A stretch of DNA of 63,046 nucleotides, counting the filler, from a bacterium (GTDB taxonomy: Bacteria; UBA9089; CG2-30-40-21; SBAY01): the NCBI GenBank assembly GCA_040757115.1. It is 9 parts of 9 records of this genome, joined end to end, with 100 filler letters (N's around TTAATTAATTAA, not from the genome) between each part and the next. Parts side by side here need not be neighbours in the genome. Positions count along the whole stretch, not along the records: positions 26,392 to 50,042 come from JBFLYA010000040.1; 8 more parts are not named here. One strand, given 5' to 3'. The notes under the pieces are model-generated. The model was given only the letters and a program-made list of their open reading frames with translations. It searched no databases and was not told the DNA's origin. Shown here one piece after another: positions 1,456-63,046 of this stretch (positions are counted from its first letter, which is position 1; every line of letters begins with the position of its first letter). The translations under genes were made by a program, and so were the position numbers.

Positions 1456-1515
1456 TAGGAATTAGTAATTATCAGCAAAACTGGTGGTAATCTCAGAATT
1501 CAGGTCTCGAATTTT

Positions 1516-1715: not shown

Positions 1716-1800
1716 GAATTTTGGCAGCATCCCTAAATTCGCAAACTTTCTACAGGACTTTTTTCAACAGAAATTCGAGACATGAAAAGGAGGGCAAGAA

Positions 1801-2422: not shown

Positions 2423-2644
2423 TATAGCACTTATTAATCGAAATTTGACCAGATATGGCTATGAAATTCCAAATCACAAATTCCAAATTCCAAACAAATT
2501 CAAATGACCAAAATTCAAAACATTACCCCCCCATAGTTTGGTATTTAGTACTTGAAATTTGGTGCTTATTTGGGATTTGGTGCTTGGGATTTGGGATTTT
2601 TTACTTATCCACCCTGAGTAAAATTTTGACTAATAACTGCTATA
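2423..2644. mobile_element. MITE family D (TATAGC..TTATTA ends); copy at 48002-48250, related shells 2184-2809 and 45063-45214
   Basis: Inverted TATAGC ends (TA-flanked, IS630-like) with aaattcc heptamer interior. Confidence 0.8.
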
Positions 2645-2949
2645 TCGGTAAATGGCTTTCCATAAACTTTCTACCAATATATCGTTCCTACGGAACTGAT
2701 TGATTTGTCTATCTATTCCTACCGATATTATGTTCCTAACGGAACGATTATTCTCATGCCTTATTTATGGGTATTATCCTATGTAAACTTTCAGTTAATA
2801 ACCGCTATAGGCAGGTCTCTCAAGCCTTCATTCTTCTGCAATTTCTGCCTGCTTTAGTCTGAGGTCTGATGTCTATAGTCTACTGTCTGAATCACAGTTA
2901 ACATATTTTCCCCTTGACTTTCGTCTGATTTTGTAGTATTCTATCTAAT

Positions 2950-3981
2950 ATGAAGATTATATTTATATCCTGGGCGCCGTATTGTAGTCGGAGTGATAAT
3001 ATTGCTAAAAAATTAGGTGGTAAATCATATCTTGTATATTATGGAATGTTGGGGAGTAATTACTGGACAATATTTTTTAAATATTTATTTCAATTTATAA
3101 AAACCTATAAAATATTTTTAAAAGAGCGGCCAGATATTATTCTAACAATGAGTCCACCTATATTTGCCGCATTACCAGCGTATTTCTGGACAAGATTTAA
3201 CCCAGCAGGTTTTATTATTGATGCCCATACCGGGGCGATAATTGATAAAAGGTTGGGAAGAAGGGCATTATTTTTACACAAGTTCCTTTCTAAATATGCC
3301 ATAACGACGATTGTGACCAATGAGCATTTAAAATCTATAATAAACTCATGGAATTGTCACGCCACAATTATAAGTGATGTTCCAGTAGAATTTAAAAACA
3401 GTGCCCCACTTAAATTAAAACCAGGATTTACTATTACATTAATCAACAGTTTTGCCATTGATGAGCCAATTGAGACATTTTTAGCCGCGGCAGAAAGGTT
3501 ATCTAAGATAAATTTTTATGTCACAGGCGATTTAAACGATGCCAGAAGAAATAAAAAAACGATTACTCCTGCCCCTCCAAATGTCCTATTTACTGATTTT
3601 TTACCCAATGATGAATATACGGGTTTGCTTAAAGCATCAGATGCGGTTATGGTTATTACGCTTGATGACCATACAATGCAGAGAGGCGGCTATGAAGCAG
3701 TCTCTCTACAAAAACCATTAATTATCTCAAATTGGGAGATACTCAGAAAAACCTTTTATAAAGGGGCAGTATTTATTGATAATACGAGTGAGGGTATTGA
3801 AAAAGGGATATTAAAAATGAAAGAAAATATTGAAAAATACAAGGTAGAGGTAATTGAATTAAAAAAAGATAGAGCACAAATCTGGAATAACGCTCAGCAA
3901 AGGCTTGAATTACTTATGTCAGAATATTTGGAGAAACGGACATGCCCACAAGGAGTGGGCACAAAGGGGGATGAAAATTGA
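2950..3981 (+). CDS. GT-B glycosyltransferase (GT4-like)
   Basis: PDIILT motif, LLKASDAV..YEAVSLQKPLIIS nucleotide-sugar binding motif; TTGACT/TATTCT promoter-like sequence upstream. Confidence 0.8.
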   Translation: MKIIFISWAPYCSRSDNIAKKLGGKSYLVYYGMLGSNYWTIFFKYLFQFIKTYKIFLKERPDIILTMSPPIFAALPAYFWTRFNPAGFIIDAHTGAIIDKRLGRRALFLHKFLSKYAITTIVTNEHLKSIINSWNCHATIISDVPVEFKNSAPLKLKPGFTITLINSFAIDEPIETFLAAAERLSKINFYVTGDLNDARRNKKTITPAPPNVLFTDFLPNDEYTGLLKASDAVMVITLDDHTMQRGGYEAVSLQKPLIISNWEILRKTFYKGAVFIDNTSEGIEKGILKMKENIEKYKVEVIELKKDRAQIWNNAQQRLELLMSEYLEKRTCPQGVGTKGDEN

Positions 3982-4063
3982 GCATAGAGATTAGAGATTA
4001 GCAAAAGAGTGCAAGTTCTAATTTACTAATTCTCTAATTCTCTAATTAACTATTTTCAGAAGA
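3933..4063. repeat. Repeat shell GATGAAAAT...TTTTCAGGAGAA; related at 26504-26660, 33305-33490, 26392-26503
   Basis: Visible near-identity between 3933-4063 and 26504-26640, and between 33325-33420 and the complement of 26392-26490. Confidence 0.75.
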
Positions 4064-4072
4064 AAAGGGAAA

Positions 4073-5107
4073 ATGGGAATATTAATTAAAGAGGCGGATT
4101 TAGACAAGGATAAAGATATTTTAATCCAGACATTGAACGAAAATAGAAGAATCCCTTTAGACGAAGAGAGATATGTCTGGCTATATAAAAAAAATCCTTA
4201 CGGAAATGCAAAGGTATGGTTGGTTATTGATGAAGACTCAGGAGAGGTCGCTGGTTTCACCTGTGCCTTACCAAGAGCTGTCAAGGTAGAAAATCAAGAG
4301 GTGATTTGCTGGAACTGTGGAGACTTCTCGATAAATAAAAAATATAGAACTCTTGGTGTGGCGATTAAATTAAGAAAAGCGGCAAAAGAATGTGTGGATA
4401 AAGGAATCGTCCCGTTTTTATATGCCCATCCTAATGATAAAATGCTGGTAGTTCACCTTAAAGTAGGTCATACTGTTATTGGCAAAATGTTTCGTTATGC
4501 AAAATTATTAAAGCTTAATGCTAAGATTGAGGAGAGATGGGGTAAAAATTTTCGTTGGGTAAGTAAAATTATTAATCCAATGATGAAATGGACAGGCACG
4601 GAAATATTTAGAAAAAGGATATACGAATTTACTATCACCACGGATAGATTTGGAGATGAATTTAATTCCTTTTTTGATGAAGTAAAAGGAAATTATCCCG
4701 TAATTGGCGTCCGAAGTGCAAAGTATCTAAATTGGCGATTCCGTGAACATCCATTGTATAATGTCGAAACTATTATATTGAAAAAAAATACCTCCATCGT
4801 CGGCTATCTTATCTTTATAACCGAAGCCGGTATTGTGCATATCAAAGACTTCCTTTACCTTAACGAGGAAGCAGGAATGGAACTTTTAAGTAATTTAATC
4901 ATAGAATTAAGAAAAAGAGAGGTCTATTCTATTTCTGCCGGGCTACTTAACACAAATCCATTCATTAATATACTGAAGAAGTTTGGTTTTTCATTACGGC
5001 CAGATTCATCTTCAGTCATTGTGCATCCGAATTCTTCCTTTGAATTTGCTGATTTAGTTCTGGATGGAAGTAAATGGTTTATGACAGTTGGGGATAGGGA
5101 TGTATGA
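4073..5107 (+). CDS. GNAT family N-acetyltransferase (polysaccharide-locus type)
   Basis: W.Y..NP.G, GDFSINKKYRTLG acetyl-CoA motif, RSAKYLNWRF, C-terminal GDRD. Confidence 0.75.
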   Translation: MGILIKEADLDKDKDILIQTLNENRRIPLDEERYVWLYKKNPYGNAKVWLVIDEDSGEVAGFTCALPRAVKVENQEVICWNCGDFSINKKYRTLGVAIKLRKAAKECVDKGIVPFLYAHPNDKMLVVHLKVGHTVIGKMFRYAKLLKLNAKIEERWGKNFRWVSKIINPMMKWTGTEIFRKRIYEFTITTDRFGDEFNSFFDEVKGNYPVIGVRSAKYLNWRFREHPLYNVETIILKKNTSIVGYLIFITEAGIVHIKDFLYLNEEAGMELLSNLIIELRKREVYSISAGLLNTNPFINILKKFGFSLRPDSSSVIVHPNSSFEFADLVLDGSKWFMTVGDRDV

Positions 5108-5462
5108 AACATTTCTCGGTGGTGTCTGAAAATAACTCTAATAGTGAAATCTATGCAGATTTGGTGTCCAAAAGGGATTTCCTCCAAAGAGCAAAATGCA
5201 AAAAGCAAATATAAAAATTACATATCAAAATGTAAAATTATCTCTTTCCTTTCAGCGTTAAAATACTTGAAGCAAAGATATTACCAAATTCCTCCAACTC
5301 TTTGAGAAACCCTGCTACTTCCTCTTTGAAATTTGATTTGTAATTTTGCATTTTGATATTTAATATTTAATATTTGATATTTAATATTTATTTGTTGTCT
5401 CTCCCAAATCCTATTTTGCAGAATCCTATACACTATTTTAACCTTTATGCTAGATTAAGACA

Positions 5463-8453
5463 TCACTCATTTTTCCTGCTTACCAGTTCATCCACATACA
5501 ACAACCATCCTTCAAGCGTTTTATCTGGATAAATCTTTGAGAGTAATCTCAAATAGGTATTTACTTGTTTCTGGTGTTGTGCTGATTGGGGTTCACCGGA
5601 TTTAAACTCAATTACCACCACTTTATCTTGCCAGACCAGAAGCCGATCTACTCGATACTGTTGACCACTTTCATCGACTATCTCCTTTTCGCAATAGATA
5701 CTAATATCCGGTGCAAGCATAAACCATTTTCGCATCTCTTCTCTTTTAAAAAAATCTCTCAAGATAGGAATTATCTCCTGTTTATCTTGACTTAAAGTGC
5801 CAAACCTGTTCTCAATTTCTTCCTCCCATTGTTCCGATAGCCTTTCTATCCCCGCGAGAAACTCGTGAATAAATATTCCTCTCTCTTTAGCCTTTTTACG
5901 GCCAGTATCCCGCAATTCATCGATATTTATCTTTGGACGATAAAGTTTATCTTGCCATTCATTGACCTGGGGAGGATAGATATGACTTTTTCTCTGCTCT
6001 AAAGTTTTTGGAGTTTGAATAAGAGGTGAGCCAATCTCAAGGCGGGGTTCAAGAATTGGCACAGGTAACTTTTTATGACCTTTGAATTTCGGAAGAAAGA
6101 TATAAAGTTCATCAATAGCACGGGTCAATGCCACATAAAATATATTTAGCCCTTCTATCAATTGGGCGGTGAATTCTCTCTCGTAAAGTTCCCTTAGTTT
6201 TGCAGATGCCTCTCGATATTTTTCAACAATACGATAAGGTATAATTCCCTCACCATCCTTTTCATAAATCTCATTAATTGTTGATTTTTCCAGATATGCA
6301 AATGGATAAATGACTACTGGAAATCCAAGCCCTTTTGCCTTATGGATGGTCATTACCCGAATGGCGTTGGCATAGCCGGGTAAAACCACCTGAAAGTCCT
6401 TTTTCTCCTCTTCATCTTTGTTCCAGCGGGCAAGAAACGACTTAAGGCTATTTTCCCCTTCTACCTCAGTGTTTTTCAACACCTCAAGCAATTGAAAAAA
6501 GAATCCTTCTTCATTTGGAAATTCCTGAAACACATTATACCCTTTCAAGATTTTGCTGACTAAATCATAAGGCGGCAGAAAGCCAACCATCTGAAAATAG
6601 TTTTCTAAATGCGACTCCCATACCTCCGGGAATTCATCGCGGAAAAGGGTGTAAAGAGCCTTTCTTTTTATTCGATTTTTAAGAAGAAAGGAATAAATCG
6701 TGAAATGAGTAAGCCCACTTGCCTTGAGGAAAATATCCCCTTGCAAAAAGCCTGCAAATGAAAGATTGTCAATGGGTGAGTTCAGGAATTTTAAGAAACA
6801 GACTATTTCCTGAATCAAGTGGTGTGAAGAAATGTCAAGGGTCATTTCTGAAGCCACGGCAATCCCTGCACCAGTTAAAACCCTGGTAACCCATGATGCC
6901 TCATCATTCGTTCTAACAAGAATGGTAACTTCCCCTGGAGAAAATCTATGGATTATTTTGTTCTGAATGACATCAACAAGATACTGTTCAATTTTCGGAT
7001 ATAATTCATCTTTATCCAATGGTTCATCTATCGACTCTATTCGGACATATCCACCTCTAAATTTCTCTTTTGATTTCTGTTGGCTATGGAGATAAGTTTC
7101 AAAGGGAATGGAGAGTTTTACCTCTTCTGCCCAATGGCTTAGATTTTCCTGGCAAAAGGTATTATTGACAAATTCAACGATATTCTCCCGACTTCGGTAG
7201 TTTATCTCCGGGAATTCTTCTTTAATTTTCTCTTTCTCTACGCTTGGGAAATTTGCTTTTGCCTCATCAAAAAGGGCACTTTCTCCCCCTCTGAAGCCAA
7301 AGATAGCCTGTTTTTTATCACCAACATAGAAAAGCGAACCTGTCTTTGAAAGTGCCTCTTCGATAAGCGGAAATAAGGTTTGCCACTGGCTTCGACTCGT
7401 ATCCTGAAATTCATCTATAAAGAAATGTGCAATACGGTCACCGAGATGAAAATAAACTTCTGGAACAGCCCCTTCGTTTTCAAGGAATGTGTTCAACAGG
7501 ATGTTCAGGTCTTCGATGAAGATGATTTGCATGTGTTTTTTAAAGGAATCAACACCTTCATCAAAATGGCTAATAATATCAATGAATGGGGCAAAACGGC
7601 AGTGCGCGGTCATTTCGGCAAGGGAAGATATACCCTGCCGAATCTCCTGCCATATCTTCTGATGGGAAGGGGTAATAATTGAACCTTTGTTACAAATCTC
7701 ATTCACAGCATCCTTTAGAAACATTTTACTTTCCCAGGGTTGATAGTGAGCATCATTTCTGAAATTGTCAACGGCTCTCTTAAAGTGTGTATTAAACATT
7801 ACCTTTTCCTTGCCCATTTCACAAAATCCTTCCACATCTTTGATAAGATTCGTTCGTAGTTTTTTTATATCTTCGCTTGTGCAAACTCTTTTTACCTTGA
7901 GTCCTTTTAGAACCTCCAGTTTTCTTAGACTACTGATATTTGTAAGGATTTCGTTCTTTATATTCCAGGTAATCCTTGAATTGATATGCAGAAGTTCATC
8001 GACAAAATTAAGGAAGATAGCCTCGAGGGGGGAATTATGATATACCTGAGAGAGAAGTTCATCAAGGGCAAAATTGAATGCCTGGGATGAGCTCATTTCT
8101 ATTTCAAAATGTGGTGGAATCCCCAATTCAAGGGCAGAGGCAGTAGTTACTGATGTCAGAAAAGAGTCAATGGTTTGCACCTTAAAATCTGAATAATTAT
8201 CAAGTAGTTCATTCAGTTTTTTTTCAGCTAATTCTTTGTTTTTAGAATCACCGAGAGCCATTTTCTTAAGGTCAAAAATGATTCTTTCCTTCATCTCACC
8301 AGCGGCTTTGTTGGTAAAGGTAATAGCCAGGATGTTGCGGGCAGAGGTTTTTATCTCTGGCGAAATGAGAAACTTTATATAGCGTTCAGACAGGGTCATA
8401 GTTTTCCCCGCACCTGCTGAAGCAGATATAACCAGAATATGTGGAAATTCCAT
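5463..8453 (-). CDS. UvrD/AddA-like ATP-dependent helicase with C-terminal PD-(D/E)XK nuclease
   Basis: ASAGAGKT Walker A, AITFTNKAAGEM, IDEFQDTS, VGDKKQAI, MTIHKAKGL, YVALTRA, RVDRL..VIEFKSG; start placed at MEFPH because the longer ORF start lies in a repeat shell. Confidence 0.9.
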   Translation of the reverse strand: MEFPHILVISASAGAGKTMTLSERYIKFLISPEIKTSARNILAITFTNKAAGEMKERIIFDLKKMALGDSKNKELAEKKLNELLDNYSDFKVQTIDSFLTSVTTASALELGIPPHFEIEMSSSQAFNFALDELLSQVYHNSPLEAIFLNFVDELLHINSRITWNIKNEILTNISSLRKLEVLKGLKVKRVCTSEDIKKLRTNLIKDVEGFCEMGKEKVMFNTHFKRAVDNFRNDAHYQPWESKMFLKDAVNEICNKGSIITPSHQKIWQEIRQGISSLAEMTAHCRFAPFIDIISHFDEGVDSFKKHMQIIFIEDLNILLNTFLENEGAVPEVYFHLGDRIAHFFIDEFQDTSRSQWQTLFPLIEEALSKTGSLFYVGDKKQAIFGFRGGESALFDEAKANFPSVEKEKIKEEFPEINYRSRENIVEFVNNTFCQENLSHWAEEVKLSIPFETYLHSQQKSKEKFRGGYVRIESIDEPLDKDELYPKIEQYLVDVIQNKIIHRFSPGEVTILVRTNDEASWVTRVLTGAGIAVASEMTLDISSHHLIQEIVCFLKFLNSPIDNLSFAGFLQGDIFLKASGLTHFTIYSFLLKNRIKRKALYTLFRDEFPEVWESHLENYFQMVGFLPPYDLVSKILKGYNVFQEFPNEEGFFFQLLEVLKNTEVEGENSLKSFLARWNKDEEEKKDFQVVLPGYANAIRVMTIHKAKGLGFPVVIYPFAYLEKSTINEIYEKDGEGIIPYRIVEKYREASAKLRELYEREFTAQLIEGLNIFYVALTRAIDELYIFLPKFKGHKKLPVPILEPRLEIGSPLIQTPKTLEQRKSHIYPPQVNEWQDKLYRPKINIDELRDTGRKKAKERGIFIHEFLAGIERLSEQWEEEIENRFGTLSQDKQEIIPILRDFFKREEMRKWFMLAPDISIYCEKEIVDESGQQYRVDRLLVWQDKVVVIEFKSGEPQSAQHQKQVNTYLRLLSKIYPDKTLEGWLLYVDELVSRKNE

Positions 8454-8651
8454 ATATTTAAAGTATAGCCCTAGTGCTCTGTCGCTACTCAATTGATGTG
8501 CTCCCTTGGCCTAATCATTACCCACATCTTTTAGTGGACAGATTAGATAGAAATTCCAAATTCCAAGCACCAAATTCCAAATAAATTCCAAATTCCAAAC
8601 ACTAAATTCCAAAGTTTATATTACAACGATGGAAATTCATTTAGACTTTTC

Positions 8652-8863
8652 GTAACTATTCACCACGAAGAGCACGAAGGGCAGGGAGATGTTACAGAAC
8701 AAATCTCTTTATGCCTTCTTTCAATCTTTCCACATTGAAATTTATCAATAGACCAACCTTGATATTTGCCAATTTCATATATGTCAATATTTGAACTTCA
8801 TGAATTCGATAATTCATCAAATTTCACTTCGTGCTCTCCGTGCCCTTCGTGGCGAATAGTTAC
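8652..8863 (-). mobile_element. GTAACTATTC-ended element carrying an internally deleted GxxExxY gene; relatives at about 10450-10613, 25821-26170, 43595-43764, 62679-62755
   Basis: Translates MKFDELSN joined to IHEVQILTYMKLANIKVGLLINFNVERLKEGIKRFVL*, homologous to the C-terminus of 38549-38923. Confidence 0.85.
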
Positions 8864-9076
8864 CTTTATTCTCATCTTAAAATCTTTCGAGCCCAAAGAC
8901 TCATTTGCCTCAATATAGTTTGCTCCAACTGAACCCGAAGCCCTAATTATTTGCTTTAGATATTCGATATTAGTAATAGTTTTAGGTAGTTTCTTACAGA
9001 ATAAAGCAACCTCTTGAGCAAATTGATAAGTTCTTTCTTCTAAATCATATTGTTTGGAATTTTGAATTTTGGTCAT
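8864..9076 (-). pseudogene. Four-helix-bundle (23S rRNA IVP/Avd-like) gene, interrupted
   Basis: YDLEERT..QIIRASGSVGANYIEANE..KDF motif; cut after MRIK by the 8652-8863 element; a possible terminal EKSK* remnant lies near 8637-8651. Confidence 0.85.
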
Positions 9077-9292
9077 TGGAATTTATTTGTATTTTGGAAT
9101 TTGTGATTTGGAATTTTGCCACTCACTCCGCTCTCCTGCAATCTCTAATCTCCCGTTTATAGTTTATCCTTGCTTACCTCATCTTGTTACCCAACTTGTG
9201 GGTAAGGATTAGACCCCCGCCAGCGGGGGACAACGGCCAATCAATCACTTGAATAGCGACAGAGCACTAGAATAGATAAACTTCTTTATTTC

Positions 9293-9955
9293 TTAGTGTT
9301 TTCGTGGCTGAGTAGTTACAATTCCTGAGCATAAATTCAAAATAATTTGATGTATTTCTTCAACACTTTTTTGTCGGTTGATTATTTTCACCCTTGCCGA
9401 TTCTTGTTTGCTGATTTCAAGGTAACCCTGTCGGACTCGTTGATGGAAGTCAAGTGCCTCTTGTTCAATTCTATCTCCCAGACCTGCCGTAGATAAAGTT
9501 TTAGCCATTTCCAATCCTTCTTGCGGGTCAACATCCAGAACAAAGGTTAAATCTGGCTTAATCTCCTGGGTAACCACAGCGTTAAGTTTTTGAATCAAAT
9601 CTTTATTTAGCCCTCGACCATAACCCTGATAGGCCATCGTAGCGTCAATAAAGCGGTCACAGATAACTATTTTACCTGCCGCTAATGCTGGTTTTATTAC
9701 CTCCTCGATATGTTGAGCTCTGGCAGATAAATATAGAAATAACTCAGTTAAAGCCGACATATTGGAATTCTCCGGGTCTAACAATATCTGCCTTATCTTA
9801 TCACTAATCTTAGTTCCACCGGGCTCATAGGTATGAATTACTTCAAACCCTTTTTCTCGCAATGCCTTTGTAAGTAATTCTGACTGGGTAGTCTTTCCAC
9901 TACCCTCAGTGCCTTCAAAGGTAATGAACATACTGAGACGATTCATTTTTATCAT
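9293..9955 (-). CDS. tmk: Thymidylate kinase
   Basis: FITFEGTEGSGKTTQ, EPGGT, VICDRFIDATMAYQGYGR. Confidence 0.95.
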   Translation of the reverse strand: MIKMNRLSMFITFEGTEGSGKTTQSELLTKALREKGFEVIHTYEPGGTKISDKIRQILLDPENSNMSALTELFLYLSARAQHIEEVIKPALAAGKIVICDRFIDATMAYQGYGRGLNKDLIQKLNAVVTQEIKPDLTFVLDVDPQEGLEMAKTLSTAGLGDRIEQEALDFHQRVRQGYLEISKQESARVKIINRQKSVEEIHQIILNLCSGIVTTQPRKH

Positions 9956-10339: not shown

Positions 10340-10435
10340 ATTATACAAAATTTACTATTTTTTGTCAATGTTTTTATTGACAAGTTGAGATAATAGTGAT
10401 AAAATACAGAAAAACTGTATAATCACTTGTTAGAC
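10340..10435. promoter_or_regulatory. Back-to-back PintI/Pc-like promoters plus attI-like site 1
   Basis: Minus strand TTGACA-17-TATAAT (10340-10368); plus strand TTGACA-17-TAAAAT (10377-10405); GTATAAT-N4-T-GTTAGAC core at 10429-10435; homologous to 15050-15145. Confidence 0.75.
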
Positions 10436-10622
10436 TAAAAGAGATTAAACCACGAAAGGCAGAGAGAACACGAAGTGAAATTTGATGAAATATCTAATAA
10501 AGTTAGCAAATATTAAAGTTGGCTTGTTGATAAATTTTAATGTAGAAAGGTTGAAAGAAGGCATAAAAAGATTTGTCTTGTCCAATCTTCGTGACCTTCG
10601 TGCTCTTCGTGGTAAAAGAACA

Positions 10623-10671
10623 GTCTAACAAAACAATGAACCTGACAGAGCAGATTATTTTATCGTTGGGC
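10623..10671 (+). other. Very short attC site (49 bp)
   Basis: GTCTAAC ... AATGAACCTG-ACAGAG-CAGATTATT ... GTTGGGC; the R'' box complements the preceding GTTAGAC. Confidence 0.65.
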
Positions 10672-18669: not shown

Positions 18670-18980
18670 TAATAAAAATAATCACACAGAGACACAAAGT
18701 CACAAAGGAATTGAATAAAACAATAAACCTTTGTGTTCTTTGTGGCTTTGTGTGAGAAAATAAAAAGGAGATATTTTAGGGGCAACCGTGAATGTGGAAT
18801 GCACAATAATTCGGTGAGGCAGAGGAAAAGGAAAAGACAGCGAATCAAAGCTTTTGTCTAACCCTGCGTTGCAGTTGACGGCGGGGGACTGTGCCGTGGT
18901 CAGAGTTTTGTAGTCTCTCAAAGTTTTATCTTGCTATCAAACTTTTGTGGTAATTCTCCCCGCCGCACCTGAACTTTATC
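18663..18980 (+). repeat. ORF-less gene cassette; copies at 19157-19475, 23937-24086 (cut by gap) and partial at about 18460-18662
   Basis: Near-identical sequence GTTAGACtaataaaaataatcacacagagacacaaag... bounded by attC sites. Confidence 0.9.
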
Positions 18981-24086: not shown

Positions 24087-24186
24087 NNNNNNNNNNNNNN
24101 NNNNNNNNNNNNNNNNNNNNNNNNNNNNNNTTAATTAATTAANNNNNNNNNNNNNNNNNNNNNNNNNNNNNNNNNNNNNNNNNNNN
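24087..24186. other. Artificial contig linker (also 26292, 50043, 52247, 54436, 56613, 58790, 60934)
   Basis: 100-nt N-runs with central TTAATTAATTAA. Confidence 0.97.
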
Positions 24187-25804: not shown

Positions 25805-25941
25805 CTATTCTATTTTCCTTGTAACTATTCACCACGAAGGGCACGAAGGACACGAAGATTCGACAGAACAAATCTCTTTATGTCTTCTTTCAATCTAATT
25901 TATCAATAGACCAACCTTGCTATTTGCCAATTTCATATATG

Positions 25942-26121
25942 GTAATGGGTCAGTGAAATGGGGGATTCTCCTGAAAGTAGGAAGTAGGAGAGTAGGAAAG
26001 TAGGAAAGGGGGAGACATTGCCCCCAGAAGAGGAATACCGTGCACATCCTTTATCCCTTTCCTACTTCCCTACTACCTACTTGCCTACTATTTTCATTCC
26101 CCCAAATAACTGATGTATTAC
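25942..26121. mobile_element. MITE family C (GTAATnnGTCAGT TIR); copies at 27616-27822 and 40077-40256
   Basis: 8-bp target duplications catatatg, ctctgacc and tgtttac(t/c). Confidence 0.9.
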
Positions 26122-26660
26122 CATATATGTCAATATATGAGCTTCATGAATTCGATAATTTATCAAATTTGTAACCGTTCAGGCTATATATCAAAAGTGT
26201 AAGAAAGGGGATAAGGAGATAAGAGTGATATGGAGATAAGATAATAGAAATAGATTGAAATTTATAGAAATAGGTAGAAATTGATTGTGGANNNNNNNNN
26301 NNNNNNNNNNNNNNNNNNNNNNNNNNNNNNNNNNNTTAATTAATTAANNNNNNNNNNNNNNNNNNNNNNNNNNNNNNNNNNNNNNNNNNNNTATAAAAAC
26401 ATCAAGAAACTCTAAGGAAATAACTATAGAAATACAATAATAAAAAATTAATTTTAATCCTGTTCATCTGCGAAAATCTGCGTCCCATTTTACATTTTCA
26501 GGGGAAACGGTCATGCCCTGCTGGGGCACAAACGGGGATGAAAATTGAGCATAGAGATTAGAGATTGGAGATTAGCAAGAGTGCAGGTTCTAATTCACTA
26601 ATTCGCTAATCTCTAATTAACTATTTTTCAGGAGAATCCTCCATTTCAGTGACGCATTAC

Positions 26661-31085: not shown

Positions 31086-31359
31086 CTATTCCGTGCTTGT
31101 AACCGTTCACCGCAGAGACACAGAGAGGCAGAGAAAAAATTAAAATCTATCATCAGAGACAGAAATTTCCTTTTTTTGTGCATTTTGGGTCTTTCGTTAT
31201 TTATTAATCTTTTAATACTTACTTTCGACTAACTGTTTTTAAGCATTTTTAAACACCGAAAAACGCGAAAAAAAGATATTTTCCTCTCTGTTTCTCTGCG
31301 TCTCTGCGTCTCTGCGGTAAAGGATTACCTGAACGGTTACCCGTGCCCTTTGTTCAGTG

Positions 31360-33526: not shown

Positions 33527-36500
33527 TTACCCTTTTTCTATCTTAAACAAGCTCAGGGTGCCGTTCTGGTTGGCGGTGAGGATTAGGAGATTGCCACTTT
33601 TATCCTCAGTGAGGCTTATACCCATCGGTATCCATAAAAGATGGATACACTGAATCTCTTTGCCGCTGGCTACATCCCATAGCCTGAGGGTATTATCACT
33701 TGATGCCGAGAGGACGCTTTTGCCATCTATAGAGAAGGCACAACTCAACACCGCATCCGTATGTCCTGAGAACTGCCGCATCTCTTTGCCGCTGGCTACA
33801 TTCCATAGCCTGAGGGTCCTATCCCTTGATGCCGAGAGGATGCTTTTGCCGTCGCCAGAGAAGGCACAACTCAACACCTCAGCCCTATGTCCTGAGAACT
33901 GCTGTATCTCTTTGCCGCTGGCTACATCCCATAGCCTGAGGGTCCTATCCCTTGATGCCGAGAGGATGCTTTTACCATCCGGAGAGAAGGCACAACTTAA
34001 CACCGCATCCGTATGTCCTGAGAACTGGCGCATCTCTTTGCCGCTGGCTACATCCCATAGCCTGAGGGTATTATCCCTTGATGCCGAGAGGATGCTTTTG
34101 GCGTCGTTAGAGAAAGCACAACTCCACACATCATCCGTATGTCCTGAGAACTGGCGCATCTCTTTGCCGCTGGCTACATCCCATAGCCTGAGGGTGCTAT
34201 CACTTGATGAAGAGAGGATGCTTTTGCCGTCATCAGAGAAGGCACAACTCAACACCCCAGCCGTATGTCCTGAGAACTGCCTCATCTCTTTACCACTGGC
34301 TACATCCCATAGCCTGAGGGTCTTATCCCTTGATGCCGAGAGGATGCTTTTGCCGTCGCCAGAGAAGGCACAACTAAACACCACATCCGTATGTCCTGAG
34401 AACTGCCTCATCTCTTTACCACTGGCTACATCCCATAGCCTGAGGGTTCTATCACTTGATGCCGAAAGGATACTTTTGCCATCGCCAGAGAAGGCACAAC
34501 TCAACACATCATCCGTATGTCCTGAGAACTGGCGCATCTCTTTGCCTCTGGCTACATCCCATAGCCTGAGGGTTCTATCCCTTGATGCCGAAAGGATACT
34601 TTTGCCATCGCCAGAGAAGGCACAACTCAACACATCATCCGTATGTCCTAAGAACTTCCGCATCTCTTTGCCTCTGGCTACATCCCATAGCCTGAGGGTC
34701 TTATCACTTGATGCCGAGAGGATGCTTTTGCCATCGCCAGAGAAGGCACAACTCAACACCGCAGCCGTATGTCCTGAGAACTGGCGCATCTCTTTGCCTC
34801 TGGCTACATCCCATAGCCTGAGGGTTCTATCCCTTGATGCCGAGAGGATGCTTTTGCCGTCGCCAGAGAAGGCACAACTCAACACCGCATCCGTATGTCC
34901 TGAGAACTTCCGCAGCTCTTTGCCGCTGGCTACATCCCATAGCCTGAGGGTTCTATCCCTTGATGCCGAGAGGATGCTTTTGCCGTCGCCAGAGAAGGCA
35001 CAACTCAACACCGCATCCGTATGTCCTGAGAACTTCCGCAGCTCTTTGCCGCTGGCTACATCCCATAGCCTGAGGGTTCTATCCCTTGATGCCGAGAGGA
35101 TGCTTTTGCCGTCGCCAGAGAAGGCACAACTCAACACCGCATCCGTATGTCCTGAGAACTTCCGCAGCTCTTTGCCGCTGGCTACATCCCATAGCCTGAG
35201 GGTCTTATCACTTGATGCCGAGAGGATGCTTTTGCCGTCCGGGGAGAAGACACAACCCGTCACCACATTATCATGTTTCAGGTTAGGTGAGCCAAAGAAA
35301 CCTTGAAGGGACTTACCTACATTCGTTGAGTAATATCCAAAGTTTTTGTCCTCAGGATGGTATCCTTGGGTATCAAGACAAAGGACATTAGAATAGAAGA
35401 GAGAAGACTCATCCCGCCATTTCCTTTGCCAGGCATCAATCATCTCCTTTTGGACTATCTTCTCTAATAAGTTCATTCGTAGATTGAGCAATTCAGAGGA
35501 GGTATCAAAGAAATTTTTAGCCGGGATGTAGGTTTCCAGCAATGTATTTCTGGATAGCCTGGATGAGCCATCAAAATGCCTTAAGGCATCATTTAATACC
35601 CCTTTATCTTCACTCATAAGGACATCACTCATGGTTTTATATACCCATTCAGGTCTTTTCTTGCTTATCTCTTTTTCTTTTTCTTTTTGCGGTTTTATAG
35701 TTTGAAGTTTTTCCAGCTCCTCTTTCTCTATCCTTTCCATGCCGCATAAACAGCGGTATAAAAGTGAGGTATGGGCTAAATCCTTACCGTTTTTAAGCCC
35801 TGCAATGATACTATATCCTATCTCCCTATCCTTTTCAGAGGCAATAGAGAGGGTCTCAAGTCGATGGTCGATGTCTATCCGAGCAACCCCTTTAATGTCT
35901 ATCCCTTTATTTATTGTTATCCATCTGGCGGCGAGAAATTCCATTACTGTAGAATGGAGGAAGGTTAACTCTTCATAGCCTGAAGGGATGAGGAGTTGGG
36001 TATTAATGAGTTCCGTAATCCAGTCATCTGCATCTTTCACCTCACTTTTCTCAATCTCGGCTTTGATAGTAGTCCGGTTGATGTCTCTACGAGGGGAGCC
36101 GCTTACCGATTCATAGAGGCATTGGTAGGATAGAGAAGAGAGGCAATCATATTGTTTTGCCGCCTCAGGTTTTTTTAACAGTGAATCTGGCTTTTTGGCT
36201 TCAATGAAGAATTCCCTTATCCTCTCAGGATATTCAAATTCCCTAAATTTTATTCTCTCCCATATTCGTAAGAGGAAGAACTTAACGAGGATATCGAACA
36301 TTACATATCTTCTTTCAATTTTCTCAAAAAACTGATAATATATCATCAGCAGGATAGCGGTAAGTGGTGTGCCGGCAATTCTTTTTACCACCTCTTCCCT
36401 CCAGACAACCTCATCAAATCTTTTATAAAGTTCTGTCTCTTCACCATAAAAGCCTTTAACTAATTGCCGTAGTTGTTCTGTATCAAGTGAGGCAACCGTA

Positions 36501-38254
36501 AATATGGGGATATCATCGGTGTGGTAAACATCCTCAATCTTTCTTGAGGTAAGGAAGAGTTTATTTTTGTCCTGCTCTTTAATTTCTTTCATCAGGTTTT
36601 TTATTATATCCATTATTATCTTGCGGTTTTCTAATGATGCTTCATCAAACCCATCCACATATAGGGCTAATGAATTATTTTCCCATTTTTGTAGGGCTTC
36701 ATTTGTTGCTGTTTGCAAGGCAACTTCTTCATCTACAGTCAAGGTTTCCGGCTCTCTTTTAGGGAATAGGAAGCCAGAGAGGAGGTATGCTATGGCAGAA
36801 GACCGCTCATATCTTGCCGATTCAGGTTTATGACCCATCCTTTCACACCATTTGCCAAAGTCTGGCAGTTCCCTGCAGGGCACAAAGATAGGTGTCTTTT
36901 CATCCTTGAAGGTAGAATGGGTAAAATAATGCAGGATAGTGGTCTTGCCTGCACCGGGAATGCCATAGATAAATCCTTTGTTAAATGTTTCAAATACCTC
37001 TTTGGCGGTATATGAGGTCTTTTCCTTTTCCTTCTCTTCCTCATATTTTCCCTTTACCTCTATACTCAATCCTCTGGGTAGGAAACCAGCTCTTTTGGAC
37101 ACACCTGTTTTTTGAGTAAGGGTTATATCTATGTTAAGATTGATAAAGTTTTGCTCAATGTCAATAGAGGGATACAATCCTGCCAGCACCGGGATAGTTT
37201 TTGATTTATCTTTAAGGGCTTGTAGTTTTGCCTCAAAGTCAGATAGCCTTGCTTCCTGTGGCAGGAAGAGGCGATGGAGGAAGACTTTTTGGGTTTGGGT
37301 AAATCCTTTTAGATGGAACTCGCCTAAGGGGACGGAACTGATATTATTTGGTTTAAGCTGGGCTTGTAATCCCTGAAATAAGGCATCGGTAACGATTAAT
37401 TCATCCTGCATTGCCTCTTTCTCTATTCTAAATGTTCGTATAGCCTCAGAGCCGGTTAAATCTATCTTCTTGCCTTTTTCATCAAGCCAAAATTGGCAAT
37501 AACCCAGATGTGCAATCATCCGCAATAGAACCTTGAAGCCAAACTTATCTTTTATCTGCCGCTCCCGAAACAAGGCAAGCATCACCTGGGTAAGTTCCTG
37601 CGTCTTATTTGAGTCGCCAAAAAACAGCACCCCATCACCGATAGACCTTATCCATTCAAAGCCATAATCTTCAACAACTTCTTTGGATTTCTGGTAATAG
37701 TAATCAAGGAATTGTTGGGTGTAGGAATGACCCAGTCTTTCAGATTGAGGAGTGAAATTGACAATATCTATGAGGCAGAGGATACCACATCCCTGTGCGG
37801 TATTAATCTTAAAATCAAAACTACCGCCTGTGCGTCTTGAGAATAAATCCGGTGCCTCTCTGGCAATCCGAACAAAGCCTGTATCCTGAACCCAGAAGAT
37901 AAAGTTATGGTTATACTCTGCTAACACATCCCGTGAGAGATTCAGGTTGCTTAGTGCGTCGGTCGGAGCATCATCCCAGCCGTAGAAAGAGACTACCGCA
38001 GGCGGGTCAGTAGGTAGCTTGTTGTCTCTAAGTAGCTGTAATGGGTCTGGGTTATCTGAGGTGATGTAGAACTCGTGGAATGACAAGAAGGGTAATTTTT
38101 GGTTGTGTCTCTCTTCTTTAATTCTCTCAATGATTCGCTTTGGGACTTCTTCCTGATTATAGACAGCGAGGACAAACTTACAGGTTTTAGCAACATCTAT
38201 AAGAGTATAGAGCCTATTAAATTCTTCTTCAAATTGACTAATCTTTCCGTTCAT
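33527..38254 (-). CDS. NLR-like STAND protein: N-terminal domain, class III nucleotide cyclase, NACHT, WD40 repeats
   Basis: DIVNFT..IGDGV cyclase motifs; GIPGAGKTT Walker A; YVDGFDE Walker B; GTPL; 13 WD40 repeats. Confidence 0.9.
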   Translation of the reverse strand: MNGKISQFEEEFNRLYTLIDVAKTCKFVLAVYNQEEVPKRIIERIKEERHNQKLPFLSFHEFYITSDNPDPLQLLRDNKLPTDPPAVVSFYGWDDAPTDALSNLNLSRDVLAEYNHNFIFWVQDTGFVRIAREAPDLFSRRTGGSFDFKINTAQGCGILCLIDIVNFTPQSERLGHSYTQQFLDYYYQKSKEVVEDYGFEWIRSIGDGVLFFGDSNKTQELTQVMLALFRERQIKDKFGFKVLLRMIAHLGYCQFWLDEKGKKIDLTGSEAIRTFRIEKEAMQDELIVTDALFQGLQAQLKPNNISSVPLGEFHLKGFTQTQKVFLHRLFLPQEARLSDFEAKLQALKDKSKTIPVLAGLYPSIDIEQNFINLNIDITLTQKTGVSKRAGFLPRGLSIEVKGKYEEEKEKEKTSYTAKEVFETFNKGFIYGIPGAGKTTILHYFTHSTFKDEKTPIFVPCRELPDFGKWCERMGHKPESARYERSSAIAYLLSGFLFPKREPETLTVDEEVALQTATNEALQKWENNSLALYVDGFDEASLENRKIIMDIIKNLMKEIKEQDKNKLFLTSRKIEDVYHTDDIPIFTVASLDTEQLRQLVKGFYGEETELYKRFDEVVWREEVVKRIAGTPLTAILLMIYYQFFEKIERRYVMFDILVKFFLLRIWERIKFREFEYPERIREFFIEAKKPDSLLKKPEAAKQYDCLSSLSYQCLYESVSGSPRRDINRTTIKAEIEKSEVKDADDWITELINTQLLIPSGYEELTFLHSTVMEFLAARWITINKGIDIKGVARIDIDHRLETLSIASEKDREIGYSIIAGLKNGKDLAHTSLLYRCLCGMERIEKEELEKLQTIKPQKEKEKEISKKRPEWVYKTMSDVLMSEDKGVLNDALRHFDGSSRLSRNTLLETYIPAKNFFDTSSELLNLRMNLLEKIVQKEMIDAWQRKWRDESSLFYSNVLCLDTQGYHPEDKNFGYYSTNVGKSLQGFFGSPNLKHDNVVTGCVFSPDGKSILSASSDKTLRLWDVASGKELRKFSGHTDAVLSCAFSGDGKSILSASRDRTLRLWDVASGKELRKFSGHTDAVLSCAFSGDGKSILSASRDRTLRLWDVASGKELRKFSGHTDAVLSCAFSGDGKSILSASRDRTLRLWDVARGKEMRQFSGHTAAVLSCAFSGDGKSILSASSDKTLRLWDVARGKEMRKFLGHTDDVLSCAFSGDGKSILSASRDRTLRLWDVARGKEMRQFSGHTDDVLSCAFSGDGKSILSASSDRTLRLWDVASGKEMRQFSGHTDVVFSCAFSGDGKSILSASRDKTLRLWDVASGKEMRQFSGHTAGVLSCAFSDDGKSILSSSSDSTLRLWDVASGKEMRQFSGHTDDVWSCAFSNDAKSILSASRDNTLRLWDVASGKEMRQFSGHTDAVLSCAFSPDGKSILSASRDRTLRLWDVASGKEIQQFSGHRAEVLSCAFSGDGKSILSASRDRTLRLWNVASGKEMRQFSGHTDAVLSCAFSIDGKSVLSASSDNTLRLWDVASGKEIQCIHLLWIPMGISLTEDKSGNLLILTANQNGTLSLFKIEKG
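33655..35280 (-). repeat. 126-bp tandem repeat (13 near-identical WD40 units)
   Basis: Directly visible DNA repeats; several consecutive units are essentially identical. Confidence 0.95.
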
Positions 38255-38397: not shown

Positions 38398-38498
38398 TAA
38401 AATTAACTATATCACAATATTCATCTATTGTCAATAAACTTTGTGCGACCTTCGACAAGCTCAGGGTCACATAGTAAGCCTGCCAAGCCATTTTTTTA

Positions 38499-38962
38499 AC
38501 CTGTGCAATCAATAATTCACCACGGAGACACAGAGGCACAGAGAAAAATTAACAGACAAGTCTCTTGAGGCCGTCTTTTAAAACAGGCACATTAAAATTC
38601 ATAATAAGACCAATTTTAATCCCGGACAATCGTAAATAAGTCAACAGTTGTGCAGTATGAATTGGTAGTATGTCCTCGACTACTTTAATCTCAAGAATAA
38701 CCTTTTCTTCGACTACAATATCAATTCGATACCCACAGTCAAGTTTGATTCCTTTGTATTCAAGAGGAAGAGGTCTTTGCCGTTCAAATTTCAAACCACT
38801 TAAATGAAGCTCGTGACAAAGGCATTCTTCATAAGCTGATTCCAATAGACCAGGCCCCAAATACCGATGAACTTCTATTGCCGCTCCAATTATTTGCTCT
38901 GTAAGTTCTTTTTCTAAAATCATTACTCCGTGCCTCCGTGTCTCTGTGGTGATTGCACAGGT
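38499..38962. mobile_element. GxxExxY gene unit with 13-bp perfect terminal inverted repeats and inverted 9-bp repeat arrays
   Basis: ACCTGTGCAATCA at 38499-38511 and its complement at 38950-38962; cacggagacacagaggcacagag / ctccgtgcctccgtgtctctgtg. Confidence 0.7.
38549..38923 (-). CDS. GxxExxY protein
   Basis: [39 protein letters not shown]. Confidence 0.95.
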
Positions 38963-39672
38963 CGAATCCCTTTATTTCCCCTTATTTTTCTATCCTTTAA
39001 TATTGCCTTTGCGACTAATAGGTCATAAGGTACGGTAATTTTGATGTTCTCATAGTCTCCTTTTACCCATTTTACCTTCCCGCCCAATCGTCTAATTAAT
39101 AAGGCATCATCTGTGGCATAAAAATTATCCTGATATGCCTTTTCGTAAGCATCTCTGATTAAATCATATTTAAAGACCTGTGGTGTTTGAATCATCACTA
39201 AACTATCTCTATCCCAGGTTTCTTCAATCCACTCACCACCATTTATTGATTTAATCGTATCTACTGGCGTAACACCAGGTATCGCTCCGCCTGTCTGTCT
39301 TGCCTCAGCAATAGTTTCATCTATTAACCGCTGGGTAATAAATGGTCTGGCTCCATCATGAATAAGAACTAATTCTGTCTCAGGAAGAACTTTTCTTAAT
39401 CCATTATAGACCGAATCCTGTCGCTGTTCCCCGCCCGGGATAACCTCAGTTACCTTTATAAACCTATATTTTTCTACAATCTCTCGCTGAGTATAGGCAA
39501 TATCATCTTGTGGAACAACGAGTATAATGTAATCAATAGACATTGATTCAGATAAAATTTTTAAAGGATAGTAAATCAATGGATGATTGTTAATCATAAT
39601 AAATGATTTAGGTATTTGGCTACTCATTCTTTCGCCTTTACCTGCGGCAACCAGGATAGCACAAATCTTCAT
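38923..39672 (-). CDS. ispD: 2-C-methyl-D-erythritol 4-phosphate cytidylyltransferase
   Basis: [43 protein letters not shown]. Confidence 0.96.
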
Positions 39673-42435: not shown

Positions 42436-43578
42436 ATGGGTAAAAAGTATTATCTGATGTCGCCAGGACCTACCTCAGTTCCACCAGAGGTAAGTTTAGC
42501 TGAGGCAAAACCGATTCTTCACCATCGGACAAAGGACTTTGAAGCGGTGCTTGGTAAGGTAAATGAGGAGATAAAATATCTATTCCAGACACAAAATGAT
42601 GTTTTTACCTTTGCTTCATCAGGAACAGGGGCAATGGAATCAGCCGTGGCAAATCTGCTCTGTGCCGGTGATACTGCTCTGGTTGTTCGAGGTGGAAAAT
42701 TCGGTGAACGGTGGGGAAATATCTGTAAGGCTTATGGTGTTAATTTTATTCCTTTAGACATAGAATGGGGTTGTGCGGTTAGCGCCAATGAGATTGAGGC
42801 TAAATTAAAGGAGAACCCAAATATAAAGGCGGTATTTACTACCCTGTGTGAGACCTCTACGGCAACCCTTATGCCGATTAAAGAAATTGGTGAGGTAGTT
42901 GCCAAAACTACTGCGTGTCTGGTGGTAGATGCGGTTAGCGGTCTGGGCGTGGATGAATTCAGGATGGATGAGTGGAATGTCGATGTCGCCGCAGTTGGCT
43001 CTCAAAAGGGCTTGATGATTCCACCAGGATTGGCTTTTGCCGCAGTTAGCCCCAGGGCAATGGCAATGAGTAAAACTTCGACCTTACCTAAATTCTATTT
43101 CTCTTTTGCGGCGTATAAAAAAGGATTGGAATCTGGTGAACCGCCTTATACCCCTCCTGTTTCTTTGATTTATGCCTTGCGACAGGCACTTGATATGATT
43201 AAACAGGAAACTATAGAAAAGGTATGGCAAAGACATGCCATTTTGGCACAAGCTACCCGCGCCGGAATTACAGCATTAGGCTTACGACTCCTATCAAAAA
43301 GCCCGGCAAATGGACTGACGGCGGCTTTTGGACCTGGAGAAGATGACGGCGGGATTATTGTTAAAAAATATAGCCAATTAGGGATAACCGTAGCCGGCGG
43401 TCAGGACCATCTCAAAGGAAAAATATTTAGAGTTGCTCACATGGGTTATGCAGAGATGTTTGATGTCATCATGGCTATCTCTGCCTTAGAAATGATATTA
43501 ATGGACATAGGCTATAAATTTGAGATTGGTGCCGGGGTAAAAGCCGCTGAGGAGGCACTTCAAAAACTATCTGGTTAG
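42436..43578 (+). CDS. Class V aminotransferase (serine-pyruvate/alanine-glyoxylate type)
   Basis: PGPT, SGTGAMES, VDAVS, GSQKGLMIPPGL, FRVAHMG. Confidence 0.93.
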   Translation: MGKKYYLMSPGPTSVPPEVSLAEAKPILHHRTKDFEAVLGKVNEEIKYLFQTQNDVFTFASSGTGAMESAVANLLCAGDTALVVRGGKFGERWGNICKAYGVNFIPLDIEWGCAVSANEIEAKLKENPNIKAVFTTLCETSTATLMPIKEIGEVVAKTTACLVVDAVSGLGVDEFRMDEWNVDVAAVGSQKGLMIPPGLAFAAVSPRAMAMSKTSTLPKFYFSFAAYKKGLESGEPPYTPPVSLIYALRQALDMIKQETIEKVWQRHAILAQATRAGITALGLRLLSKSPANGLTAAFGPGEDDGGIIVKKYSQLGITVAGGQDHLKGKIFRVAHMGYAEMFDVIMAISALEMILMDIGYKFEIGAGVKAAEEALQKLSG

Positions 43579-43903
43579 ACTAAAAGAGATTAGACCACGA
43601 AGAACACGAAGTGAAATTTGATGAAATATCTAATGAAGTTAGCAAATATTAAAGTTGGCTTGTTATGTTGATAAATTTCAATGTAGAAAGATTGAAAGAA
43701 GGCATAAAAAGATTTGTTCTGTAACATCTCCCTGCCCTTCGTGCTCTTCGTGGTGAATAGTTACCAAAAGGATTAAAAATCAGTGTTTCATCCGTGTCTA
43801 TCTATGGCTGAATAATTACGATTTATTTTACATTTTTCTTTGTGTCTGTGCGTCTTTGTGTGATTATTATCCTTCTGAAAATATCCACATAGGGAGTTAA
43901 AAG

Positions 43904-49915: not shown

Positions 49916-50350
49916 GTAACTATTCAGCACAATTATTCGATCTGTGCGGTTAGAAGAGAAACCTCCCCGCATTAAGGTTAAAGACGTACTCTCCCTTCTC
50001 CGCCGCTGGCGGGGGATTAAGGATGTGAAAATCTTCTCAACTNNNNNNNNNNNNNNNNNNNNNNNNNNNNNNNNNNNNNNNNNNNNTTAATTAATTAANN
50101 NNNNNNNNNNNNNNNNNNNNNNNNNNNNNNNNNNNNNNNNNNTTGTTTTCCACAATCAATTTCTACCTATTTCTATAAATTTCAATCTATTTCTATTATC
50201 TTATCTCCATATCGCCCTTATCTCCTTATCCCCTTTCTTACACTTTTGATATATAGCCTGAACGGTTACCTATAATTATAACCTAACTTAAGTGAAATTG
50301 TCAAGTAATTTTTGCTTGACAATTAATGATAGAATTATTATGATAATTAT

Positions 50351-62675: not shown

Positions 62676-63046
62676 TTGGTAACTATTCACCACGAAGGGC
62701 ACGGAGAGCACGAAGTGAAATTTGATGAATTATCGAATAGAGTCATTGGATGCGCGTAACTATTCACCACGAAGAACACGAAGAAAATTAGATGGTCTCT
62801 GAAATTAACCACAAAGTACACAAAGAATACACAAAGAAATAAAGGGAAAAATTTATTCTCTCAAAAATCTTTGACTCTTTTGTGAAACTCTTTGTGATCT
62901 TTGTGGTTAAAAGAATTGTAGTTATTGTCAGACACTACCGGAAAAAACGGTGGTGTCTTAATCTAGCATAAAGGTTAAAATAGTGTATAGGGTTCTGCAA
63001 AATAGGATTTGAGGGAGACAACAAATAAATATCAAATATCAAATAT

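Follow-up and report, generated by a model that had tools for sequence, protein, structure and literature searches.

The element at positions 38499-38962 of the 63,046-nt stretch of DNA analysed here (the window) holds an intact gene of the GxxExxY family, coding for a minimal PD-(D/E)XK nuclease, between inverted arrays of short repeats and outer terminal inverted repeats (TIRs), and it heads a decay series of deleted, truncated and gene-less relatives. We conclude that this series probably consists of cassettes of the intervening sequence (IVS) type that were captured between insertion sequence (IS) ends and then multiplied by DDE transposases acting in trans, as miniature inverted-repeat transposable elements (MITEs) or as passenger-carrying mobile insertion cassettes. 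The window consists of 9 contigs of one metagenome-assembled genome (MAG) joined by N runs (100-N spacers, e.g., 24087-24186, 26292-26391, and 50043-50142), and therefore recurrence in the window means recurrence across contigs. The source MAG, G000, has 462 contigs and 4.32 Mb at 36.8% G+C, and is 99.9% complete with 1.4% contamination; it is a groundwater MAG, and the one public run found to contain the window in full is a groundwater metagenome from which it may derive.

The model has two layers. The inner, old layer would be a small gene, encoding either a GxxExxY nuclease or an Avd-like four-helix-bundle protein, between inverted arrays of 7-9-nt units. The outer, lineage-specific layer would have arisen by fusion of the cassette ends to the 11-15-nt TIRs of resident ISs, one type being IS66-family (ISBst12-like) with GTAAC..TTCA ends and the other ISKra4/ISLre2-like with CGACCTGTG... 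ends, the type carried by the focal copy. DDE transposases supplied in trans would move whatever lies between such ends, either by cut-and-paste or by copying, duplicating 8 bp of target. This mobilisation in trans would have amplified the cassettes into hundreds of MITEs, and copies that had lost most or all of the gene would have kept moving, leaving the decay series. The end types, the 8-bp duplications, paralogous empty sites, resident ISs that share these ends, the multiplication of deleted copies, and polymorphism between close genomes are all observed; we infer which transposase acts on which ends.

The IS66-type ends were recognised by the pattern GTAA[CG][CT][AG]TTCA, which occurs 1405 times in G000 against about 27 expected, with conservation beginning exactly at the G. 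Inward-facing neighbours less than 600 bp apart form 366 pairs with a length mode of 200-250 bp, and the 8-mers flanking them are identical at 8/8 positions in 126 of 359 pairs and at 7/8 or better in 142 of 359 (shifted controls: 0/718 perfect, 1/718 reaching 7/8). The duplicated 8-mers are 76% A+T. Paralogous empty sites, which exist because the elements sit inside other repeats, also reveal 8-bp duplications. Array motifs were found within the next 74 nt of 1108 of 1409 termini, and the native cassette end, (A)TTCACC, would have been turned into an IS66-like end by the GTAAC prefix. A GxxExxY gene or remnant is present in 74 of the 366 pairs, and 31 of the 73 scorable ones show a duplication of at least 7/8; since these elements keep their duplications, copies went on transposing after the gene had been gutted. 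An IS with the same type of ends resides in the genome: the 1563-bp element G000:C198:3061-4623 begins and ends with GTAACCGTTCAGGTA and encloses a frame of about 500 aa for an IS66-family transposase (PF03050, E 1.9e-39). Pairs of GTAAC ends 600-3000 bp apart were also considered as autonomous elements and were rejected, as they mostly enclose host genes between two separate elements.

The focal 13-nt repeat, ACCTGTGCAATCA, belongs to the second end class, with consensus CGACCTGTG.A.T and 226 termini in G000. Three paralogous empty sites of this class give 8-bp duplications, and 28 of 52 pairs have a duplication of at least 7/8. The element G000:C137:1162-2817 has ends CGACCTGTGAAATAGGT and is flanked by an 8-bp duplication without mismatch (AAAGATTT); its 438-aa frame, free of stops, matches the ISKra4/ISLre2 profiles NF033572 (E 2.7e-22) and NF033529 (E 1.4e-15) and is only a distant relative of ISKra4/ISLre2 transposases. 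Four intact GxxExxY genes lie between ends of this class, one of them with a perfect duplication, and paired IS-type ends surround 13 of the 20 near-full-length GxxExxY genes of G000, three with perfect duplications. Paired IS66- or ISKra4-type ends were also found around 2 of 18 four-helix-bundle genes, and one four-helix-bundle cassette shows a perfect duplication. GxxExxY would be cargo as far as movement driven by IS ends is concerned.

The focal element itself is intergenic, downstream of ispD. Its outer arms (38499-38511 and 38950-38962) are 100% complementary over 13 nt and are the perfect cores of a left TIR at 38497-38511 (TAACCTGTGCAATCA), of the ISKra4/ISLre2-like end class, and a right TIR at 38950-38964 (TGATTGCACAGGTCG). 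Inside them, the array arm downstream of the gene (38517-38546; CACGGAG/CACAGAG-type units with a period of 8-9 nt) is 87% complementary over 30 nt to the arm upstream of it (38923-38952), which contains GGAG motifs and abuts the ATG. The gene (38549-38923, minus strand) encodes 124 aa and matches TIGR04256 (E 2.9e-46; 156.6 bits, cut-off 35; profile positions 1-116 covered) and PF13366 (PDDEXK_3; E 1.5e-43; 148.3 bits, cut-off 22). G25, E28, Y31, D68, E78, and K80, which make up the GxxExxY motif and the catalytic D...ExK, are invariant in 48 aligned sequences. These results bear out the observation in an earlier note on this DNA that an intact GxxExxY gene lies between inverted arrays and 13-nt perfect TIRs. 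The AlphaFold2 model has a mean predicted local distance difference test score (pLDDT) of 95.7, and its top Foldseek matches are all PD-(D/E)XK nucleases, all weak (E >= 4.3e-3); no chain was matched in a PDB sequence search with GxxExxY. PADLOC matched neither GxxExxY nor the C2-type four-helix-bundle protein and gave one weak NsnC match (E 0.0065).

The ispD open reading frame (ORF; 38923-39672, minus strand) has a C-terminal tail encoded by the outer repeat and array arm of the focal element. In two metagenome runs, contigs join the focal arms (38546/38925) with only 10 letters in between, and these joints have short sides (25-46 nt); they look like paralogous gene-less hairpins in other contigs rather than empty alleles, a weak hint that a gene-less hairpin with the focal arms exists elsewhere in the community.

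We also followed the decay series through the window. The exact 9-bp words of the earlier note, tried as a marker of the family, do not recur: CACGGAGAC was found once and ACAGAGGC twice in the window, which is chance level, and CACGAAGNNCACGAAG (at most 2 mismatches), of the CACGAAG type, gave 20 window hits against 0.13 expected. Recurrence in the window is of design and unit type, not of identical words. The deleted, truncated, and gene-less relatives that the earlier note listed are all there. At 8652-8863, profile match and copy comparison identified a 212-bp IS66-type MITE with CACGAAG arrays and a C-terminal GxxExxY remnant (profile positions 82-116), of which 5 copies at 97-100% identity lie in unrelated contexts; two copies, G000:C65:6382-6593 (L110) and G000:C163:532-743, sit in the middle of hairpins with GCGGATT and CAATTA units. 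The deletion derivative at 10429-10629 retains profile positions 81-116 between outer repeats GTTAGACT...AGTCTAAC and has about 10 copies at 84-97% identity. DNA similarity revealed a GxxExxY-derived element at 25821-26170, with a nested GTAGGAAAG-type hairpin and a right end cut by another GTAAC element, and a deletion derivative at about 43574-43764 with unlike ends, GTTAGACT on the left and GTAAC on the right. Direct reading of the sequence added a gene-less IS66-type MITE with CGCAGAG arrays at 31099-31340 (flanking 8-mers TCCGTGCT and CCGTGCCC), a truncated copy at 62679-62755 followed by a gene-less element with a CACAAAG hairpin at 62756-62910, and a gene-less CACAAAG-array hairpin at 18680-18755. 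GTAA(G/C) ends are present at 8652-8863, 31099-31340, 25821, 62679, and 62756, and absent from 38499-38962.

The four-helix-bundle genes form a parallel series. The region 8471-9270 is a composite: its outer frame is a MITE of the CTAGTGCTCTGTCGC type, inside which lies a cassette with TTACCCACA ends, AATTCCA arrays, and the remnant of a four-helix-bundle gene (8864-9082, minus strand; TIGR02436, E 1.9e-8); the CTAGTGCTCTGTCGC-ended MITE is 150 bp long and has 67 termini. The earlier note had described this gene (8551-9117) as interrupted. It is indeed disrupted, but comparison with the intact copies on contigs C2 and C266 indicates that about 150 bp were replaced by the 212-bp element, not that the element was plainly inserted. 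On contig C407, a TTACCCACA-ended element with gene-less arrays is flanked by duplicated ACCCCCGCC. The deletion derivative at 5180-5420 combines arrays with a C-terminal coding remnant and has an arm that also occurs, letter for letter, downstream of the gene in the intact four-helix-bundle cassette G000:C409:20861-21184; the remnant earlier placed at about 5238-5325 is supported by this shared arm, and a hidden Markov model (HMM) search at 5180-5420 gave no four-helix-bundle match. Gene-less inverted arrays at 2460-2600 were confirmed by direct reading and are of the AATTCCA type, and comparison with the related genome G001 revealed a heptad (TAGAGAT) hairpin at 3960-4050. Repeat elements form the start or end of several window contigs.

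In G000 as a whole, TIGR04256 has 104 matches, 20 near-full-length (at least 100 of 116 profile positions) and 84 partial, the latter including about 29 N-terminal stubs spanning profile positions 1-25; TIGR02436 has 27. In an inverted-repeat score between flanks, calibrated on 596 control ORFs of 100-150 aa, 14 of the 20 near-full-length GxxExxY genes reach or exceed the 99th percentile, as do 17 of 18 four-helix-bundle genes, which is more than chance would give. The 6 GxxExxY exceptions have arrays that are one-sided or unlike on the two sides. A periodicity score did not separate the genes from the controls, the repeat background being high, and a stricter self-match score gave modest enrichment only; motif counts were more informative. 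Array units vary among subfamilies (e.g., CACGAAG, CGCAGAG, CACAAAG, or AATTCCA at loci other than the focal one), and within one element both arms carry the same unit.

The presence/absence polymorphism expected by the earlier note was found at the ispD locus and at 3960-4050. In G001, a genome of the same genus with ~96-98% identity to G000, ispD is 97.6% identical, homology ends at window position 38975, and other repeats replace the GxxExxY element; in four genomes of the same family, ordinary genes without repeats directly follow ispD. At 3960-4050, (TAGAGAT)n in G000 corresponds to a (CACAGAT.A)n hairpin in G001 with identical boundaries, and at 9270-9313 an IS66-type end abuts the same base in both genomes, with different element bodies. 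The C-terminal tail of ispD in G001 runs into a different repeat. We also noticed a module of about 55 nt (...CATGTCCGTTTCCCCTGAAAAT...) that frames array hairpins (window 3940-3960 and 4050-4080; L103:1140-1500) and occurs in three tandem copies beside ispD in G001. Synteny between window 388-8476 and G001:C35 is broken and rearranged, with breakpoints at repeat elements, e.g., about 5113-5478.

These data bear on an alternative in which the arrays are host regulatory hairpins, REP-like terminators or stabilisers that lie near small genes by chance and have no mobility. In its favour, the elements are intergenic and G000 has many gene-less hairpins with loops of 4-12 nt. Yet target duplications and empty sites, identical copies in unrelated contexts, insertions nested in one another, and polymorphism between close genomes all speak against it. 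For TIR-bearing elements, the 8-bp duplications refute immobile hairpins, and we give this explanation next to no credence.

Several results weigh against capture and amplification by IS ends, and we consider them together. Around the focal element, the flanking 8-mers CATTTTTT and AATCCCTT agree at 4/8 positions and form no intact duplication, so that insertion of the focal copy itself cannot be dated or proven; none of the 5 near-identical copies of the 212-bp family shows matching flanks, the CACGAAG subfamily has a duplication in only 8 of 27 cases, and about 60% of IS66-type pairs lack one. Flanks might have been scrambled by recombination, given the many copies. Simple transposition does not predict that one element takes the place of another at the same site. 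As to the transposases, the IS66 transposase frame of G000:C198 has 2 in-frame stops, no intact IS66-type copy with matching ends was found in G000 (the other 5 transposase matches are fragmentary), and the frame of G000:C137 reaches 79.5 bits with NF033572, below the curated cut-off of 205, with no match in a Pfam scan. Relatives are rich in IS66-type termini (G001, 1184; G012, 659; G019, 176; reversed-pattern controls, 0-2), and a search for IS66 transposases gave no match in either G012 or G019; G008 has an intact one, but the strict end pattern is missing from its flanks. MAGs often miss repeats. Finally, 7 of 20 GxxExxY and 16 of 18 four-helix-bundle genes are without paired IS-type ends, and of the 158 GxxExxY-like loci that tblastn detected, 78 have no such pair around them.

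The earlier note had gone further and seen in these genes and arrays a selfish class analogous to REP-associated tyrosine transposases (RAYTs) and their REPIN partners. Mobility, the decay series, and the multiplication of non-autonomous copies all stand; GxxExxY as the engine is not supported, the outer TIRs being IS ends. Ordinary IS transposases, which the note had named as the explanation that would count against its own, largely account for movement of the TIR-bearing elements, and loci without such TIRs fall outside this account. We also weighed an autonomous selfish cassette, in which GxxExxY would recognise the array units or hairpin and drive insertion, homing, or exchange, with gene-less arrays as REPIN-like partners and IS ends as a secondary acquisition.

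Data from other phyla are relevant here. A pattern scan with one genome per species gave 580 confirmed relatives, of which the best 80 loci were examined; they come from many bacterial phyla and one archaeon. Inverted ACC[AG]CN[GA]AG arrays are present on both sides in 54 of these best 80, usually beginning directly after TTC, TGA, or TTA, and the flanks beyond are unrelated, diverging right outside ACC[AG]C; none of the cassette ends inspected had a GTAAC prefix. Motif counts are given since a mismatched-pair control was inflated by the likeness of arms between loci (19/78 at or above the 99th percentile). This recurrence of gene plus arrays favours an autonomous cassette. Moreover, all six units of one element share one variant in both arms (e.g., CGCAAAG, CACTGAG, or CACCGAG), which pairing alone does not require, and we read the arrays as repeated recognition motifs also able to pair. 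In agreement with motifs more than with a selected stem, arm mismatches showed no wobble bias (71 versus 75 for sense-strand G:U-compatible changes at 46 loci) and 129 of 275 were transversions; the MAG's own copies, which are not independent, gave 48 versus 27 in the same test.

In favour of GxxExxY as the engine are the invariant catalytic D...ExK residues and one GxxExxY copy pair that appears to be under purifying selection, with a ratio of non-synonymous to synonymous differences (pN/pS) of 0.09 (9 synonymous, 3 non-synonymous differences); other copy groups, at 0.42-1.06, do not follow it. Among small folds, Foldseek places the Hjc Holliday-junction resolvases nearest (probability 0.97-0.99, E 6e-3 to 3e-2), but the fold matches are weak, with no E <= 0.001 and no PDB sequence match. 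Different elements at the same spot in close genomes would fit an exchange driven by the cassette itself. On the other hand, cassettes with a four-helix-bundle gene are built alike and lack a nuclease, the genome has 20 near-full-length GxxExxY copies and not a single master copy, and visible movement leaves DDE-type 8-bp duplications at IS-type ends. For bare cassettes no footprint or empty site at the cassette level was found, the other phyla not having been scanned systematically. In G012, 659 IS66-type termini coexist with only partial GxxExxY matches, and in G019 there is no match at E <= 1e-10. On balance we regard an autonomous cassette as unlikely.

A third possibility is that the cassettes act at the RNA level, the two arms forming a 5'-3' duplex that is removed by RNase III, which would make insertions in operons and rRNA genes harmless, with spread by recombination and hitch-hiking. 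As RNA, the focal element is predicted to close in a terminal stem of some 37 pairs (minimum free energy -143.5 kcal/mol, z = -4.87, equalled by 0 of 100 shuffles). According to PMC4990558, the IVS of Coxiella is closed by a terminal stem of 28 bp, carries tandem heptamers ahead of its S23p ORF, and is cut out by RNase III, and its origin and mobility are stated there as unknown. The 23S gene of G000 (L114, G000:C423:9709-13122) is 3482 nt long against a model of 2925 positions and has four AT-rich segments; composition and folding place array hairpins at about 1415-1500 and 2205-2275 (RNA-sense), and the second of these sites measures 19-26 nt in some relatives and 167-172 nt in others. A repeat search in this gene found no long inverted repeat, and no ORF of at least 80 aa is present. 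At about position 1127 of the query, relatives have insertions that range from about 257 to 1347 nt in length and are missing from G000. The even mismatch counts given above (71 versus 75, 46 loci) are not the G:U excess that selection on an RNA stem would leave, and target duplications and the uniformity of units within arms are left unexplained. As a replacement for transposition between IS ends we consider the RNA-level module quite improbable; it is compatible with that reading and not exclusive of it.

A bolder reading joins several of these threads. The array cassettes, with CRCNRAG-type or heptad arrays, might be a phylum-spanning selfish class with a structure-directed mechanism, inserting or being exchanged at palindrome centres (rRNA helix tips, hairpin loops, the middle of MITEs), with an Hjc-like GxxExxY catalysing or triggering the event. 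We hold this to be rather unlikely. If true, it would explain the nesting of hairpins in hairpins, the swaps of cassettes between identical boundaries in close genomes, and the symmetrical bracketing of one kind of cassette by two unrelated IS end types.

Other genes of the genome were noted in passing. Fragments of DUF559 genes (PF04480, E 1.5e-25) lie between inverted GGGGGTTAGGGGGTTGT-type arms at G000:C40:9980-10438 (L112) and G000:C200:26681-27475; in layout they match the GxxExxY cassettes and are a putative third small endonuclease-like cargo. Yet another type of cargo may be a 123-aa ORF between CGCAGAG-type arms at G000:C452:3675-4175 (L113:176-547), which matches nothing in Pfam or NCBIfam. 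The ORF at G000:C24:3774-4283 has an HYHLF motif and its own repeat on its flanks, about 12 GGGTCAGACCTYGAAA-type hairpins occur elsewhere, and its product looks like an IS200/RAYT-type enzyme. Within the window, 33527-38254 (minus strand) encodes a 1575-aa NACHT/WD40-type ORF whose WD40 units are 91-92% identical to one another at the DNA level.

The GxxExxY family (PF13366), very large and much mixed by horizontal transfer, is without published function; we found no functional study of it in the literature, and in the part of a PD-(D/E)XK survey that concerns it, the entry reads "Unknown ... multiple transfers" (PMC3424549). The rise and movement of ORF-bearing rRNA IVSs is likewise described, in PMC4990558, as an open question since the 1990s. 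IS ends and fresh 8-bp footprints on cassettes mean that at least one route of spread is ordinary mobilisation in trans, and they call for caution, since a nuclease gene boxed in by repeats need not be a RAYT-like engine. G000 is suitable material for pursuing this, as it offers about 700 elements, insertions nested in one another, and differences at orthologous sites between two genomes ~96-98% identical.

Compared with known systems, the likeness to RAYT/REPIN lies in abundant intergenic palindromes, a small nuclease-type gene flanked by them, and a gene-less decay series. RAYTs are Y1/HUH enzymes, usually single-copy, and REPINs come without target duplication, whereas here the enzyme is PD-(D/E)XK, 20 near-full-length copies are present, and both IS ends and 8-bp duplications mark the elements. 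Among minimal PD-(D/E)XK nucleases, archaeal Hjc and Cas4 are the nearest structures to the model (2wiw_A, probability 0.99, TM about 0.45; 4ic1_B, E 4.3e-3) and share the D...ExK motif with GxxExxY, although no structural match reaches E 0.001 and a PDB search by sequence found nothing.

With ISKra4/ISLre2-like (Mutator-like DDE) ISs, the link is the motif ACCTGTG.AAT, common to the focal outer repeat and the ends of G000:C137:1162-2817, but only about 10 of 13 terminal bases agree and the focal copy is without an intact duplication. A further comparison is with IS66/ISBst12 MITEs. Published IS66 ends begin GTAAGCG with 8-bp repeats, in the passages of PMC11946415 that describe them, and ISDge4, of the ISBst12 group, has GTAACTGCTCAGCA ends with an 8-bp repeat in the corresponding passages of PMC12898284, to be compared with GTAACTATTCAGCC in this genome. 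GTAAC/GTAAG ends and the 8-bp duplication are common to both, as are a resident single-ORF transposase element with the same ends and elements of 150-500 bp without transposase; unlike in those MITEs, the elements here have an array cassette of the IVS type as their body, in some cases with the passenger gene still intact, and the resident IS copy is a pseudogene.

The 23S IVSs of Coxiella burnetii and Leptospira (S23p/PF05635) share with the elements of G000 a small ORF between TIRs, tandem heptamers at the start codon, the four-helix-bundle family (TIGR02436 matches), a predicted terminal stem, and gene-less array hairpins in the 23S gene of G000 itself. They differ in that the focal cargo is a PD-(D/E)XK nuclease where the IVS has S23p, and in that the focal site is intergenic downstream of ispD and not a 23S helix tip. 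Wrapping in IS ends and 8-bp duplications, both present here, do not feature in the excerpted IVS description (PMC4990558). What is new here is this outer layer of IS ends on a known design of gene plus arrays.

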